A DNA stretch of 64,000 bases, taken from contig NZ_PXOQ01000007.1 of NCBI RefSeq assembly GCF_003008425.1, forward strand, positions 456,419 through 520,418, in the 5' to 3' direction. Below are positions 29,447-37,788 of this stretch, piece by piece; within the stretch, counting starts at the first letter, position 1; each line of letters begins with the position of its first letter. This DNA is from Aurantibacter aestuarii (GTDB lineage Bacteria; Bacteroidota; Bacteroidia; Flavobacteriales; Flavobacteriaceae). The notes beneath the pieces are model-generated. The model had not been told where the DNA came from and did no database searches. It worked only from the letters and a program-made list of their open reading frames with translations. A program made the translations under genes and the position numbers.

Positions 29447-31156
29447 TTATTTTTTATTACCTCTATTATTTAGTTGTTTTTTAGCTCTTGCTTTTAATTT
29501 CCAAGGGGCATTTTTTTGCCAATCTCCAGCCATAATAGAACCGTAGGGCATCACTTCGTCAATAACCTTACCTAAGTTAAACTCGTCCATTTGCGCTCTA
29601 ACGGTTTTCGCGTTTTTGTAAGCACTTGGTAATTCAGTAATATCAATTTCTTTAGAGAAAAAACGTGCATCAATTCCTTTAGTTTCCTCTTTAAAAATTT
29701 GCATGATACTTCCTGATTTACTTTTTCTATGTCGCGTTCTACTCACGTTTCTACCTGCACCATGTGGTGCAAACCCTAAATTGGTTGTTGTGGTTTCACC
29801 TTCAACAATTAAAACAGGTTCTGCCATGTTTAACGGAATTAATCTAGGTCCAGTAATATCTGGCATAAACTTTTTATCTAGTGGTGTTGCACCTTTAGCA
29901 TGGTAGAATAAATCGCCATCTTTAAAAACAAAATTATGTTCGTTCCAATATCTGTTTTCTATTGGAATCTCTAATGCTTCAGCAACCGAATTATGAATCA
30001 CTTCGTGGTTTGTTTTTGTCCATTGTCTAATGATTTGTAATGCATCCCAATAATTTTGTCCTTCTTCGGTATCAAAAGGAATCCACGCATTTTGCTTTTT
30101 AGTCTCAGGTGATAAAATTTGTCTAAAACGTTCTGCAACTTTCATACCTTTATCATATAATCTTGCGCCTGGACCTCTTGAACCATGATGTGTTACCATC
30201 ATTGTATTTCCTGTTTTTTTAGAGGTTCCAACAAACAAAAAGTGATTTCCATCGCCTTGAGTTCCTAGATGAGCTCTAGCAATTTGAACCATTTGTTTGT
30301 CTTTTAAAAAGAAATTAGTTTCAAATGCCTCTAACAACTTTTTTGGAAATCTAAATTGTGTATCTCTATCTCTTCCCCCTGGTCCAAAATGGGTGTTTTT
30401 ATGCGCCACATCTAAAATGATTTTAGGGTCTATTTTACCAAAATCTGTTAGCATCACAGAACAGCAAATATCTGCACTATGCATACCTGGATGAATCGCG
30501 TTTTTTGCAACCGCAACACCACCAACAGGAATAGTGCCGTCTGGTCCCGCTGGACAAGCATCTGGCATAATTGCTCCATCTACTAATGTTGGAGTTTTCA
30601 TTAATGTTTCCATTGAATTAATCACCTTGTCTACATTCTCAATCTCTTCGTTGTGTTCTGCTTTAATATTAACTGAAAAAGAGACTTTTTCTTGATGTAA
30701 CGGAATTGGTTCTGGTAATTTAAATTGCTCTAAATACGCTTCCATTTCTGAATCTAATAATTTATTGGTATTAATATGTTTTATAGCATCTTTCATCCAT
30801 TTTCCTTGTCTGTAACCTAAGGCTAATAAATCGTGACCTGTAATAGTTTTGTTTTCTTTTTCCATTTTTAATATGGTATTTTTTATAGCGTACATTCTCT
30901 CTAAAAATGCCTTTTTATTTTCTGTAATATGTAATACATCTGAGGTTACTTCTGTTATTTCAGATTGAATGACTTCAATGTTAAATAAGTTAATGTTATT
31001 GATTAACTTTTTTACGTTTTCGGTTTTAATCGCGTCTTTTATGGTTTGTTCTTCAAAGCAAAAAGCGTCTATTCCGCAACATTCTGTAATACAATGTACT
31101 TGTAAACTGTTCCAAAACGTTTCGTTTTTATTCAACCATTTATCTATATGTTTCAT
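29447..31156 (-). CDS. rtcB: RtcB-family RNA 3'-phosphate ligase with ~190-aa Cys-rich N-terminal extension
   Basis: RtcB motifs present (MPDACPAG...[30 protein letters not shown]). At 569 aa it is far longer than the ~400-aa canonical enzyme, and the N-terminus carries [13 protein letters not shown]. Confidence 0.9.
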
Positions 31157-31176
31157 TTTATTTTAATTGTGCGCCA

Positions 31177-31206
31177 TTAACGTCTCTGTTTAATGGCGCT
31201 GTTTTT
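31177..31206 (-). promoter_or_regulatory. Perfect 10-bp hairpin in the rtcB 5' leader
   Basis: GCGCCATTAA-N9-TTAATGGCGC, 16 nt upstream of the rtcB start codon. Confidence 0.4.
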
Positions 31207-31260
31207 TATACTAATTAGAAGTACTTGTTTCTAATTACTCTGCAAATATTAAGCAGTTGT

Positions 31261-31280
31261 GTGCAATGTTTTTGCGTACT
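31261..31280. promoter_or_regulatory. Conserved dyad motif, site 1 (GTGCAATGTTTTTGCGTACT), upstream of rtcB
   Basis: One of three near-identical GCAAT-RTTTTT-GCGTA sites; about 110 bp upstream of the rtcB start. Confidence 0.55.
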
Positions 31281-31373
31281 GAATTTTTTATTTAAAAATT
31301 GTGTTTAATTACATCTGAAACAAGCTTATAATAATGTAAACACTTTGCGAGAATTACTACGTAAGCGATTGAT

Positions 31374-35176: not shown

Positions 35177-35367
35177 ATTTGTTTATGAAAGTGGTATTAA
35201 CTAAAATACGCTCGAAGCACCGCAGAAGGAATACGTCCTTTTGGGAAATCTGGATATGCTATAGAAATTATCATACTTCGAGTTTTTATTATTAATTTTT
35301 TCTTTGGAAATTTTTATTTCCGCTGGGCAAAGATTTGTTTTTATTTTTGAGTTATCAAAATTTATTT

Positions 35368-35973
35368 TCAATTTTTTTTAAAAAGTAATGCCTTAATACG
35401 AAGTATTAACTTTTTTTGAATTGTGCAAATTTTATTTTTATTTTCCACCAAGGTAAATGCTGTTTTGGGTTTTGAGTTGTTTAAAAAATATAATTTTATC
35501 GATTTTAAGTCTTCTAAACTATTCATTAAATTGAGCGTTGTATTCGAAAGCTTTCTAACTTTATTTATCAATTCATTTTTATTAATAATAGTAAATTGAA
35601 AATTTTCAAAATCTTCTCTTAATAGATAAAAATCCCATAGTATATCATATTCAGTTTGATAGTCAAAACACTCTAATAAAACATTTAAATGTAAATAAGC
35701 TTCATCAAAATTATTTGCTTTACTCAGTTTTTTACAACCTTCGATTAGTTTAAAAAATATCATAAAATCTTCACCATGTTTTTCATTAGTGACCTGCAAT
35801 AATTTTTTACTCCATTCATCATTACTATAATTTATGGTAAAAAGATCAAAATAATATGGATTCGAGTCTAGATTAGATAATAATTCATCATTAGTATACA
35901 ACCAATTTTCAAATTGGGAAACTGTTATTCTTTCGGTTAAAACATCAAATATTTTGTATTCTAAAGCTTTCAT
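35368..35973 (-). CDS. Hypothetical protein (no recognisable domain), divergent from the WYL regulator gene
   Basis: 201-aa ORF with coding-like composition. A shared dyad motif sits exactly mid-way in the 93-bp divergent intergenic region. Confidence 0.5.
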   Translation of the reverse strand: MKALEYKIFDVLTERITVSQFENWLYTNDELLSNLDSNPYYFDLFTINYSNDEWSKKLLQVTNEKHGEDFMIFFKLIEGCKKLSKANNFDEAYLHLNVLLECFDYQTEYDILWDFYLLREDFENFQFTIINKNELINKVRKLSNTTLNLMNSLEDLKSIKLYFLNNSKPKTAFTLVENKNKICTIQKKLILRIKALLFKKN

Positions 35974-36006
35974 CTGCTGTAATTTTATACAAAAATGAAA
36001 TGCCCA

Positions 36007-36025
36007 TACGCAATGTTTTTGCGTA
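36007..36025. promoter_or_regulatory. Conserved dyad motif, site 3 (TACGCAATGTTTTTGCGTA), perfect 7-bp inverted repeat
   Basis: TACGCAA-N5-TTGCGTA centred in the 35974-36066 divergent intergenic region. It overlaps a TTG-N18-TATTTTAG promoter-like arrangement facing the WYL gene. Confidence 0.6.
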
Positions 36026-36066
36026 CTAGTTATTTTTTCTATTTTAGAAGTGAAATTAATTGAAAA

Positions 36067-37788
36067 ATGGCTGTAAATAAAAACGCACTTTTAAGATATA
36101 AAACCATAGATAAATGTTTACAAAACCATTTCAAAACATGGACTTTGAACGATTTAATTGAAGCTTGTTCCGATGCTTTGTATGATTACGAAGGAAAAGA
36201 TGTAGATGTTAGTAAACGTACGATTCAGTTAGATTTACAGATGATGCGTAGCGATAAATTGGGTTATAATGCGCCAATTATTGTTTACGACCGAAAGTTT
36301 TATAAATACGAAGACGAGAATTATAGTATTACCAATAGCCCAATTTCTAATCAAGATTTAAATAAGTTATCTGAAGCAGTTTCGTTTTTAAAACAATTTC
36401 AAGGATTTTCGCATTTTTCGGCTTTAGATAGCATGGTTCAGAAATTAGAAGATCACGTTTACACGCAGAAAACCCAAGAGAAAGCACTTATAGATTTTGA
36501 AAAAAATGATAACCTAAAAGGCTTCAACTTTTTAGATGAATTGTATCGCTACATACAAGTTAAAAAACCAATAAAACTAACTTACAAATCGTTTAAAGCT
36601 AGAGAGAAAAGCACATTTACTTTTCATCCTTATTTGTTGAAAGAGTTTAGAAACAGATGGTTTATTATAGGTCGTAAAAACTCTAATGTGGCACTTTTAA
36701 ATCTAGCATTAGACCGTATTGTTAAAATTGAAGAATCTGCAGACGAATTTATTTACAACACCACTTTTAATTTAGAAAATTATTACAAAAACGTGATTGG
36801 TGTTTCTGTAAGTCCTACTATAAAAACCGAACATATTTTACTTTATGTTACTCATAAACATGCGCCATATGTGGTGACAAAACCGTTTCATTCGTCTCAA
36901 AAAATTGTTGATAAAGATAATTATGGGATCACTATTTCTTTAGATGTACAACATAATTTTGAACTTGAAAAAGAGATTTTATCTTTAGGTGATGGCATTA
37001 AAGTGTTAGCGCCAAAACGTTTAAAGGAAACCATTAAAGAACGTTTACAAGAAAGTGTAGACACGTATAATACTGAATTAGACTTAAAAGAGTTAACTCT
37101 ATTAAAAAAGCAGGTTTTACATAAAGGATTTTCGGTTTTAAATCAAGTGTATACCAAACGTGAGATTAAGAAAATTAAGGGTAAACTTCACATGTATTTA
37201 AAAAATAATCCTGGTAAAACGTATAGCTTACGTGAAGTGTTTTTAAGGCTACCACAGTTAAAACCTTTAGTAATTAATAAAAATTTAAAGCAAATTATTG
37301 ATAGTTTATTACCAAACGCTTTTCTAACTAAAGTGATTTATTTTGATAAAACCATACAAGATAATTGGTACGTGACATGGCATCAAGATTTACCCGTAAA
37401 TGTAAAAGATAAAATTGAAACTGATGGTTTTACTTCTTGGACTAAAAAAGAAGACGTTATTAGTGTTATTCCACCTGAAGCTATAAATAAAAACACAATT
37501 AGTATTCGTGTACATTTAGACAATACAAATTCAGAAAATGGTGCTTTAAAAGTAATTCCGGGTTCGCAAAACAAACGCTTAACAGATACTGAAATAAAGT
37601 TAATTATAGATAATTCTTTACCTTTTGATTGTGAAGTGAATTTAGGAGGAATTCATATTTTAAAACCTCAAATTTTACATGCGTCTTCTAAAAACAAAAG
37701 CGGCAAACGCAGACGCGTTTTACATTTGGAATTTTCTAATTTGGATTTACCAAATGGTTTGGAATATGCTGAAAAAGTAGATCTTTAG
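36067..37788 (+). CDS. HTH-WYL-WCX transcriptional regulator fused to a C-terminal PhyH-like Fe(II)/2-oxoglutarate dioxygenase domain
   Basis: N-terminal DeoR-type HTH (VSKRTIQLDLQMMRSDKLGYNAPIIVYDRKFYKYED). WYL domain (IKLTYKSFKAREKSTFTFHPYLLKEFRNRWFIIGRK...LALDRIVKIEE). WCX-like segment (HILLYVTHKH...GDGIKVLAPKRLKETIKERL). The last ~170 aa carry the PhyH facial-triad motifs TWHQD ... GALKVIPGSQ ... LHASSKNKSGKRRRVLHLEF. Confidence 0.75.
   Translation: MAVNKNALLRYKTIDKCLQNHFKTWTLNDLIEACSDALYDYEGKDVDVSKRTIQLDLQMMRSDKLGYNAPIIVYDRKFYKYEDENYSITNSPISNQDLNKLSEAVSFLKQFQGFSHFSALDSMVQKLEDHVYTQKTQEKALIDFEKNDNLKGFNFLDELYRYIQVKKPIKLTYKSFKAREKSTFTFHPYLLKEFRNRWFIIGRKNSNVALLNLALDRIVKIEESADEFIYNTTFNLENYYKNVIGVSVSPTIKTEHILLYVTHKHAPYVVTKPFHSSQKIVDKDNYGITISLDVQHNFELEKEILSLGDGIKVLAPKRLKETIKERLQESVDTYNTELDLKELTLLKKQVLHKGFSVLNQVYTKREIKKIKGKLHMYLKNNPGKTYSLREVFLRLPQLKPLVINKNLKQIIDSLLPNAFLTKVIYFDKTIQDNWYVTWHQDLPVNVKDKIETDGFTSWTKKEDVISVIPPEAINKNTISIRVHLDNTNSENGALKVIPGSQNKRLTDTEIKLIIDNSLPFDCEVNLGGIHILKPQILHASSKNKSGKRRRVLHLEFSNLDLPNGLEYAEKVDL

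Follow-up and report, generated by a model that had tools for sequence, protein, structure and literature searches.

In Salmonella and Escherichia coli, the regulator RtcR senses tRNA fragments and induces the rsr-yrlBA-rtcBA operon (PMC7790460). Another switch operates in Anabaena PCC 7120, where the repressor TrcR acts through one common site on a silent tRNA array, on rtcB and on a slipin/SPFH gene, which are freed under translational stress (PMC8421152, PMC10272220). In addition, a prediction of 2016 (Burroughs & Aravind, as cited in 10.1101/312249) has the gene for RtcB accompanied in some cases by those for a Band-7 protein and a tRNA-like RNA (b7a-tRNA), and a YrlA-type RNA occasionally beside Band-7. 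Here we describe an island at positions 29447-37788 of a window, that is, the whole stretch of DNA analysed, of 64,000 nucleotides (nt) from the marine flavobacterium Aurantibacter aestuarii (Flavobacteriaceae; contig NZ_PXOQ01000007.1). In this island rtcB, tRNA genes, a tRNA-mimic RNA and an SPFH gene lie beside a regulator with helix-turn-helix (HTH), WYL, WCX and PhyH domains, and three copies of one palindromic operator stand at its promoters. To our knowledge, no switch for RNA repair is known outside Proteobacteria and cyanobacteria.

We think it likely that the island is a single-regulator regulon for RNA repair and translational stress, the Bacteroidota counterpart of the RtcR and TrcR regulons. 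A preliminary description of the locus, made from its letters alone, had proposed an RNA-repair and translation-rescue island joined by a common operator beside a WYL regulator, which would occupy the place that RtcR has in E. coli. Both the operator and the co-occurrence of the genes support this proposal, the regulator does occupy that place, and the six genes that had been named are all present, at the coordinates that had been given for them. All the island genes are on the minus strand except that of the regulator. Our comparison drew on 80 Bacteroidota loci, taken from at least 588 genome loci encoding a relative of the regulator; the 58 with at least 5 kb of flank upstream of the regulator were used to count the co-occurrence of genes. 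A motif-first scan of metagenomes (query: -7 box, 11 nt and palindrome) added at least 120 loci with at least 124 sites. The tRNAs were called with ARAGORN, structured RNAs were analysed with Rfam models and RNAalifold, proteins were compared with Pfam, NCBIfam and PADLOC models, and folds were taken from AlphaFold2 (AF2) models.

The shared operator

An exact scan of the window finds GCAATRTTTTTGCGTA at 31263, 33508 and 36010 and no further copy in the 64 kb, where the other matches carry three mismatches, which is the chance level. By simple arithmetic, three exact copies of a 16-mer have an expectation of ~6e-5 in 128 kb of strand. The scan bears out the earlier count of three palindromes in the island and none elsewhere in the window. 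They are also near-identical, as had been said, but the motif then given, GCAAT-RTTTTT-GCGTA, yields to a 17-base-pair (bp) palindrome, [AG][CT]GCA-N7-TGCG[CT], i.e. RCGCA-N7-TGCGY, as the real element underlying all three sites.

TAnnTTTG is the -7 promoter element of Bacteroidota, and on the minus strand a similar -7 box follows each of the three copies, which share one orientation, at a distance of exactly 10 nt. Site 1 (31261-31277, GTGCAATGTTTTTGCGT; -7 box at 31243-31250, minus strand) stands at the rtcB promoter and site 2 (33506-33522, GCGCAATATTTTTGCGT; -7 box at 33488-33495, minus strand) at the promoter of a unit of tRNAs and the tRNA-mimic RNA, and these two sites have in common a longer block, TTCTAATTACTnTnCAAATATT, that includes the -7 box. 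Site 3 (36008-36024, ACGCAATGTTTTTGCGT; -7 box at 35990-35997, minus strand) lies between the regulator gene and a divergent gene of 201 amino acids (aa). The earlier view that the palindromes mark promoters stands for rtcB, for the tRNA unit and for the pair formed by the 201-aa gene and the regulator; it does not stand for prfH, because site 2, in the direction of transcription, comes after the TPR gene and precedes the tRNAs.

Alignment of 128 copies of the operator, from the window slice and the 80 related loci (81 loci) in minus-strand reading, gives the consensus ACT[AG]CGCAAAAAnnYTGCGYAGT, with a TAnnTTTG-like box at an offset of 10-11 nt from the palindrome in 102 of the 128 sites. From this spacing, the palindrome spans roughly -23 to -39 of the minus-strand promoter. 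A canonically spaced -33 TTTG is absent from the regulated minus-strand promoters at these 128 sites, where the spacing does not fit. The T-run of the spacer is asymmetric and points in one direction in 110 of 117 strict sites. On the plus strand, 26 sites have a -7-like box at 19 nt from the TTTG of the spacer; this spacing fits the regulator's own promoter and thus implies autoregulation, and the TTTG in the spacer of site 3 fits the -33 element of that promoter. Where the 201-aa gene is missing, the palindrome next to the regulator has lost the T-run spacer but still has its half-sites (e.g. GCGCATCATAATTGCGT; L001 9941, L002 7640, L006 9942, L012 9941 and L014 7639). From this we suggest that the spacer serves the divergent promoter rather than binding. 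A sigma70-type promoter scan, which listed 32 sites against 27.5 expected, was uninformative for Bacteroidota.

A promoter and terminator scan lists all three palindromes as plus-strand hairpins followed by a T-run, and they could accordingly be plus-strand RNA elements, either intrinsic terminators or hairpins like those of repetitive extragenic palindromic (REP) elements, instead of protein sites. We reject this reading, to which we give hardly any credence, because no plus-strand gene ends upstream of any palindrome, because the sequence is conserved and not the pairing, with outer positions that vary independently (G..T 42, A..T 34, G..C 30, A..C 11), and because the spacing to the -7 box on the opposite strand is rigid. 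Moreover, the element stands before the regulator gene across the phylum.

Indeed, the position of the operator is conserved in Flavobacteriia, Cytophagia, Saprospiria, Sphingobacteriia and Bacteroidia; in most of the 80 loci, the palindrome precedes the regulator ATG by ~55 bp. It is kept also where the regulator is a protein of 335-342 aa without PhyH (Spirosoma, Saprospiraceae). The 584 kb upstream of the regulator gene hold 117 strict palindromes, while there are none in the 130 kb within the gene and none in the 623 kb downstream; the upstream conservation that the preliminary description had looked for is seen in these figures.

The operator is linked to RNA-repair genes throughout the phylum. 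Across the 80 loci, rtcB comes first behind it in 36 cases, a tRNA in 17, the 201-aa gene in 9 and another open reading frame (ORF) in 27; in a further 36 cases no ORF lies within 450 nt, and these stretches are likely to be non-coding RNA. The 27 other ORFs, which fall outside the query families, include recurrent proteins of ~505 aa and of ~250 aa, and 10 of the 27 were run against Pfam. Two ~505-aa proteins (with a vWA domain) and one 439-aa protein proved to be TROVE/Ro60, a 525-aa protein is a DUF2828/DUF7788-vWA protein, both ~250-aa proteins tested are RlaP nucleotidyltransferases, and one protein, of a pair encoded in L062/L063, is an FtsH-like AAA-M41 protein. The genes linked to the operator are the parts list of bacterial RNA-repair systems. 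In the L062/L063 pair, from Flammeovirgaceae-type genomes, the FtsH-like gene behind the operator (6177-8249 and 6220-8292, respectively, both on the minus strand) stands beside a tRNA-mimic module; a partnership of the SPFH-FtsH type offers a parallel.

As had been proposed, rtcB and SPFH co-occur with the WYL gene: upstream of the regulator and divergent from it, rtcB is found in 43 of the 58 loci (27 of the window type and 16 of a distant ~29% type) and SPFH in 23. The TPR gene is found there in 19, the 201-aa gene in 9 and prfH in 7, or in 10 if it is counted anywhere in the locus. Starting from the motif, a regulator homologue comes after 37 of at least 124 metagenome sites; rtcB, SPFH, TROVE, RlaP or tRNAs lie on the regulated side of 27, and 13 have RNA-repair genes or tRNAs elsewhere on the contig. 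Thus, the motif is not a general promoter element. The preliminary description had held that its presence at unrelated promoters genome-wide would speak against a dedicated operator; the metagenome scan does not show such a pattern, as far as this can be answered without a full genome. Pfam matches among the unrecognised metagenome neighbours include Hen1 (N and L domains), a T4-type RNA ligase and a PIF1-type helicase. Such genes (Hen1 of Pnkp/Hen1 repair, T4-type ligase, PIF1-like helicase) stand behind the operator at 7697-9007 of L089, among other examples in L081-L200, and a 756-aa ORF recurs ~385 nt from the motif in L096, L107, L142 and L197.

These partners also bear on a second proposal of the preliminary description, that of an anti-phage defence island under a WYL repressor of the BrxR/CapW type. 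The HTH-WYL-WCX architecture is indeed shared, generic PADLOC WYL models match the regulator, and RNA-repair systems serve as counter-measures in conflicts between organisms. However, those generic models are the only PADLOC matches of the regulator, the five other island proteins have no PADLOC match, and no island gene matches a PADLOC defence model, so the locus does not qualify as a BrxR/CapW-type system. Furthermore, the operator-linked families identified in the 80 genomes and at least 120 metagenome loci are all RNA-repair or translation components, and the locus is syntenic and compositionally native. We therefore consider a defence island improbable.

The genes and RNAs of the island

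The gene behind site 1 is a fusion of DUF6331 and rtcB (29447-31156, minus strand). Its product belongs to the RtcB family (PF01139, 120.5 bits against a cut-off of 27) and its GNHF, HxGSRGxG and HGAGR motifs (metal-binding, GMP-histidine) align to Pyrococcus RtcB 4dwr; it is predicted to be an RNA 3'-phosphate ligase. The first ~98 residues are a DUF6331 domain with a Cys-rich stretch (30860-31156, minus strand). Among the genomes examined, this fusion is found only here: the RtcB of the relatives starts at the equivalent of residue ~99, and DUF6331 is a free-standing gene in the island of L003 (4587-4892). By the NCBIfam models, the island RtcB is also not of the E. coli RtcB equivalog type. 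In their minus-strand leaders, rtcB (31172-31205) and tRNA-Pro (33417-33443) have a common AGTAATTAGAAA-AAGT start and a strong hairpin each. The Flavo-1 RNA model (RF01705) gives 40.2 bits, just below the gathering score of 42, at 31355-31425 (plus strand, opposite to that of the island); this match lies past the SPFH stop and ahead of the rtcB operator, and a hairpin comes after it. The Flavo-1 core motif is found at the equivalent place in four relatives (L003, L008, L010 and L013), and we know of no function for this RNA.

The island also encodes PrfH (34093-34806, minus strand), a protein of 237 aa that scores 229 bits on the equivalog model TIGR03072 (cut-off 166.65), contains SGPGGQHVNK and ends in a basic tail, KKDKTFKKERGKLKTELQKQLKLK. 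These are the features of PrfH-CT, a subfamily of Flavobacteriia with 225-250 aa, a GGQ motif and a basic C-terminal tail, whose member from Capnocytophaga gingivalis, characterised in 2026, releases peptides from decoding-centre-damaged and from non-stop ribosomes (PMC12829566). The next gene (33545-34090, minus strand) has a GTG start 2 nt past the prfH stop and codes for a TPR protein with a Lys-rich tail and weak family matches (TPR_19, 25 bits at the 25-bit cut-off). Its homologues, 63-73% identical, occur in 19 of the 58 loci, 12 of which, in Flavobacteriaceae, have no prfH remnant; the TPR protein is more constant in the island than PrfH.

The preliminary description had seen here a split rtcB2-prfH pair with new partners, in which RtcB and PrfH would rescue and reseal ribosomes cut in the 16S decoding centre. 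A genuine PrfH of the right subfamily is present, prfH-TPR lies near the WYL island in at least four families, and the island RtcB is the only one of the window: no second RtcB and no rtcB2 remnant, nor any TROVE, RlaP or DUF2828 gene, was found in the 64 kb. However, the island RtcB reaches 49.8 bits on the model of the PrfH partner (TIGR03073, release_rtcB), against a cut-off of 271.8, and its gene is ~3 kb from prfH, in another transcription unit. In four loci (L017, L032, L037 and L041) prfH adjoins a second rtcB, ~30% identical to the island type, which is the one that true pairs use. The 10 of 58 loci with prfH are also to be set against the 43 with an island-type or distant rtcB upstream. 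In addition, prfH stands behind a terminator, no operator or conserved promoter was found directly upstream of it, and the commonest operator partners, which are tRNAs, Y-RNA-like RNAs, Ro60 and RlaP, point to tRNA and general RNA repair. A re-partnered rtcB2-prfH module is thus unlikely. PrfH is an optional passenger of the island, and the association is loose.

Two tRNA genes follow site 2, both called by ARAGORN. The tRNA-Tyr(GUA) (33223-33306, minus strand; Rfam tRNA, 57.7 bits) keeps its position in other Flavobacteriaceae loci, with 82-95% identity. The tRNA-Pro(UGG)-like gene (33316-33389, minus strand) has G8/G14 in place of the near-universal U8/A14 and scores 27.9 bits on the Rfam tRNA model, just under the gathering score of 29; this variant is kept in the operator-linked tRNA-Pro of several genera. 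Elsewhere, operators precede arrays of 5 to ~20 tRNAs (L002, L014, L021, L030, L035, L042, L048, L051 and L053), for which ARAGORN counts 19 tRNAs in L014, 17 in L035, 16 in L002, 12 in L051, 10 each in L021 and L053, and 8 in L030; most of these tRNAs score well, with 50-76 bits. The long arrays, of 12-20 tRNAs, run on the minus strand at 3241-5308 of L002, 2978-4994 of L014, 8166-9816 of L035 and 2792-4133 of L051. In many relatives, the order of the locus is regulator-adjacent operator, tRNA run, SPFH (where present) and rtcB. The tRNA-Cys of the arrays have AT-rich acceptor stems and, even in a genus of the same family, are only 60-66% identical to the GC-rich, housekeeping-type tRNA-Cys at 4887-4958 of the window, which suggests that the array tRNAs form a second, divergent tRNA set. 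The island of the window has this set reduced to the tRNA-Tyr and the tRNA-Pro-like gene.

The position of tRNA genes mid-island had been taken as the sign of an integration hotspot. Together with the patchy distribution of prfH and of the 201-aa gene, it would agree with a mobile or horizontally acquired island whose genes became neighbours by accident. Against this, the flanking genes (an FAD oxidoreductase, mtgA and a GreA-like gene to one side and an ABC ATPase to the other) are housekeeping genes that recur in several genera, the ORFs of at least 60 aa in 27000-41000 are all assigned, with no integrase among them, and the GC content of the island resembles that of its surroundings, base composition being flat. 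Because the flanks are syntenic, the GC content is unremarkable and the tRNAs stand behind the operator, the hotspot finds no support. An accidental assembly of this kind is most improbable, and the island tRNAs are cargo.

A structured non-coding RNA of ~270 nt (32890-33160, minus strand) with two circularly permuted tRNA-like modules completes this unit. In 25 of 29 SPFH loci, two GGTTCGAnTCC T-loops, ~65 nt apart, precede the SPFH start by 350-650 nt, and ARAGORN calls no tRNA at them. RNAalifold, run on 11 Flavobacteriaceae copies, gives a structure of 59 pairs, and compensatory changes support 27 of these. In module 1 (33033-33100), a circularly permuted tRNA with the topology of the YrlA tRNA-like domain, a 5-bp closing stem, the equivalent of the anticodon stem, is followed by a variable stretch, the T-arm, a loop-closed acceptor, the D-arm and the closing stem again; in a phylum-wide alignment of 17 sequences, 14 of its 18 pairs covary. 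Module 2 (32947-33032) consists of a T-arm, a 7-bp closed acceptor, a D-arm and an anticodon-like arm. The YrlA model itself (RF02553) reaches 32.6 bits at 33016-33119 (E = 5e-4), short of its gathering score of 69, in an alignment that covers the tRNA-like part only and whose outer stem pairs are non-canonical. A covariance model (R1) built on module 1, used in place of a regular expression that missed most copies, gives 85 bits in the window and has matches in over 30 other loci, each of them on the strand of the island. These matches adjoin SPFH or lie directly downstream of TROVE/Ro60 genes, apart from a few low-scoring ones within tRNA arrays, which are artefacts bridging two neighbouring tRNAs. 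The anticodon-like centre of module 2 varies by genome (UCG here; UAG, UUU or UAU elsewhere), and in L013 the region resembles a class II tRNA-Leu. Further hairpins, ATGGA..TCCA and GGTC..GACC, are found at 32890-32946 (minus strand), the latter followed by ACCA in relatives.

Downstream of this RNA is the gene for an SPFH/Band-7 protein without a membrane anchor (31451-32551, minus strand; PF01145, 100.6 bits), whose core, at residues 166-341, is stomatin-like. To call it soluble, as had been done, is reasonable, because no hydrophobic segment is seen on reading the translation. Its homologues, with 44-74% identity, in 23 of the 58 loci are always preceded by the tRNA-mimic RNA. The island thus encodes RtcB, a Band-7 protein and a tRNA-like non-coding RNA together, as defines the RtcB-Band-7-b7a-tRNA grouping.

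The 201-aa orphan (35368-35973, minus strand), the first gene behind site 3, has no family match in Pfam, NCBIfam or PADLOC. Homologues with 28-43% identity stand at the equivalent place in 9 Flavobacteriaceae loci, and a database search returned 3 relatives only, the family being confined to a few Flavobacteriaceae. The first 26 and last ~20 residues are nearly invariant and the middle is fast-evolving; the AF2 model is unreliable (mean predicted local distance difference test score, pLDDT, 53), and the protein can be called all-helical with low confidence. After it comes a small ORF of 25 aa, MIISIAYPDFPKGRIPSAVLRAYFS (35197-35274, minus strand), conserved in 9 other loci with the consensus MSLFITYQNxPKGIxPFVMLRDYR (24-25 aa). 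We take it to be coding because its substitutions across these loci are synonymous changes at third positions. Finally, a hairpin with a T-run, of the shape of an intrinsic terminator (35140-35177, minus strand), lies 20 nt past the small ORF and upstream of prfH/TPR. The hairpin is nearly invariant (-13 to -22 kcal/mol in 10 of 10 loci); in every one of these loci it separates the small ORF from prfH or TPR, and both ORF and hairpin come after the operator nearest to the regulator. It is tempting to conjecture that the small ORF and the terminator may act as a translation-sensing leader for prfH-TPR.

The regulator and its proposed control

The regulator (36067-37788, plus strand; 573 aa) carries HTH, WYL, WCX and PhyH regions, with the Pfam WYL, WCX and PhyH models above their cut-offs. 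It is 100% identical to an Aurantibacter aestuarii protein and has homologues of 50-70% identity across Bacteroidota. In its AF2 model (pLDDT 80.5), the N-terminal half matches DriD and PafBC, the closest solved structures; these are activators of the WYL family that bind single-stranded nucleic acid, and their structures were determined with single-stranded DNA and RNA polymerase. Domains, a DriD/PafBC-like fold and a conserved palindrome at its own promoter all agree with an HTH-WYL-WCX regulator, whose binding is predicted. The C-terminal half matches small-molecule PhyH dioxygenases (SnoN/SnoK, AviO1, HygX, GriE and KanJ) and, with 45.5 bits against a PhyH cut-off of 22, qualifies as a PhyH Fe(II)/2-oxoglutarate (2OG) dioxygenase. 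Both the iron triad HxD...H (H439, D441 and H538) and the 2OG-binding R549/R550 are unchanged throughout 41 homologues, which makes an active dioxygenase probable. No separate PhyH gene was found in the loci whose regulator lacks the PhyH domain.

We propose that a dimer of the HTH-WYL-WCX(-PhyH) protein would bind the 17-bp palindrome. On the minus strand it would sit 10 nt from the -7 box, at about -23 to -39, in place of a -33 element, and on the plus strand it would cover the -33-like TTTG of the regulator's own promoter. Three units would come under its control: DUF6331-rtcB; the tRNA-Pro, the tRNA-Tyr and the double tRNA-mimic (YrlA-like) RNA, with transcription perhaps reading on into the SPFH gene; and the 201-aa gene with the 25-aa small ORF, from which read-through of the terminator into prfH-TPR would be possible. 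Upon damage to the translation apparatus, in the form of cleaved tRNA or rRNA, the WYL domain would bind a nucleic-acid fragment and the regulator would switch. The output would be an RNA-resealing ligase, newly made tRNAs, a cofactor shaped like a tRNA together with its scaffold and, in loci that have it, PrfH-CT. By analogy with RtcR (PMC7790460), the signal would most simply be damaged RNA.

As the -33 spacing at the regulated promoters does not fit, this switch may either activate or repress. Activation fits the fixed phasing, the missing -33 element and the resemblance to DriD/PafBC, whereas repression fits the precedents of BrxR, CapW and TrcR and the overlap with the regulator's own -33 element. 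Several further points weigh against a single-regulator regulon or against parts of it. The binding of the regulator to the operator is predicted from adjacency and co-conservation, and one half-site of site 1 departs from the consensus (GTGCA). SPFH has no operator immediately in front of it, and the tRNA-mimic RNA is followed by a hairpin. A strong conserved terminator separates site 3 from prfH-TPR and there is no operator before prfH; control of PrfH by the regulator is therefore a candidate only. Among the metagenome sites, 47 of at least 124 have no recognised partner, many of them on short contigs. Finally, the ligand of the WYL domain could be single-stranded DNA, as for DriD/PafBC, instead of RNA.

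One could also speculate, with considerable doubt, that the fused dioxygenase is part of the sensing, so that the regulator would be a one-component sensor coupling an Fe/2OG-dependent reaction to the control of RNA repair. HygX, AviO1, EvdO1 and KanJ, the nearest folds, act on ribosome-targeting antibiotics, and in one version of this idea the dioxygenase domain might recognise a glycoside antibiotic. In the other version, the dioxygenase might oxidise or destroy the ligand of the WYL domain, e.g. a modified nucleoside or an RNA breakdown product, by analogy with PhyH relatives that demethylate 2'-O-methyl nucleosides (PMC12709175). If the idea were true, the regulator would turn on RtcB, the tRNA-shaped cofactor and a reserve set of tRNAs; it would represent a new type of sensor of RNA damage or translation stress, and the first WYL regulator with an RNA-derived or antibiotic signal.

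Comparison with known systems

The regulator shares the HTH-WYL-WCX fold with the activators DriD and PafBC and with the repressors BrxR and CapW. As in these proteins, the site overlaps the core promoter, the regulon answers to stress and a dimer presumably sits on an inverted repeat. In contrast, most of the Bacteroidota members carry a fused C-terminal Fe/2OG dioxygenase with an intact active site, and the regulon of the island is RNA repair, while those of DriD, PafBC, BrxR and CapW are DNA repair or phage defence. Searches of ~8 million full texts, in which Burroughs & Aravind 2016 figured through its citation, found no link of a WYL/YafY regulator, with a dioxygenase or without, to RtcB, Ro/Y RNA, Band-7 or tRNA arrays, and for this reason the HTH-WYL-WCX-PhyH regulator and its operator look undescribed. 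The preliminary description had spoken of a possibly undescribed variant of the RNA-repair system. This is the part of it that stands, whereas the cargo is known or predicted: SPFH and a tRNA-like RNA were placed with RtcB in 2016, and PrfH with a basic tail has since been characterised (PMC12829566), so they are not new partners.

Similarly, PrfH of the island is of the same subfamily as the C. gingivalis PrfH-CT, but unlike the rtcB2-prfH module (PMC9304027) the island has no adjacent RtcB2, and it has a TPR gene after prfH that is absent from the accounts of PMC9304027 and PMC12829566. By their place behind the operator and their low identity to a housekeeping-type tRNA, the tRNA arrays resemble the stress-induced L-arrays of cyanobacteria (PMC8421152), which are supernumerary genes that repeat the housekeeping set and stay silent until stress. 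RlaP and Ro/TROVE are interchangeable parts of the RtcB, Band-7 and b7a-tRNA systems, as cited in 10.1101/312249, as they are around the operator.

For a phylum that counts gut Bacteroidales and marine Flavobacteriia among its members, the locus supplies a concrete regulator together with a defined regulon and a precise operator, ACTRCGCA-N7-TGCGYAGT, set 10 nt from the -7 box. It would also bring predictions that had been made separately, namely RtcB with Band-7 and a tRNA-like RNA, Ro60 with Y RNA, RlaP, Hen1 and inducible tRNA arrays, under one switch. Moreover, it raises the question of what the WYL domain, with or without the dioxygenase, senses upon damage to translation.

The RtcR operon of Salmonella and E. 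coli (PMC7790460; 10.1101/312249) is like the island in that RtcB and a tRNA-mimicking Y-like RNA stand under a dedicated sensor-regulator, and its induction is linked to damaged tRNA. The likeness goes further in other Bacteroidota, where the same operator precedes Ro60/TROVE with the same RNA module adjacent. However, RtcR is a sigma54 enhancer-binding protein with a CARF sensor, whereas the regulator of the island is an HTH-WYL-WCX(-PhyH) protein at -7-type promoters; the island has no RtcA and the window no Ro60, which SPFH replaces, and real tRNA genes are in the unit. The TrcR regulon has the same trio of tRNAs, rtcB and SPFH, with one operator and an autoregulated regulator. In that case the regulator is a small ribbon-helix-helix repressor on direct repeats over the -10 box, and in the island it is a WYL protein with a palindrome in the -33 region; the two regulons appear to have arisen independently. 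Thus, three unrelated regulators, RtcR, TrcR and the WYL protein, would converge on a ligase, a tRNA or tRNA mimic, and an SPFH or Ro scaffold.

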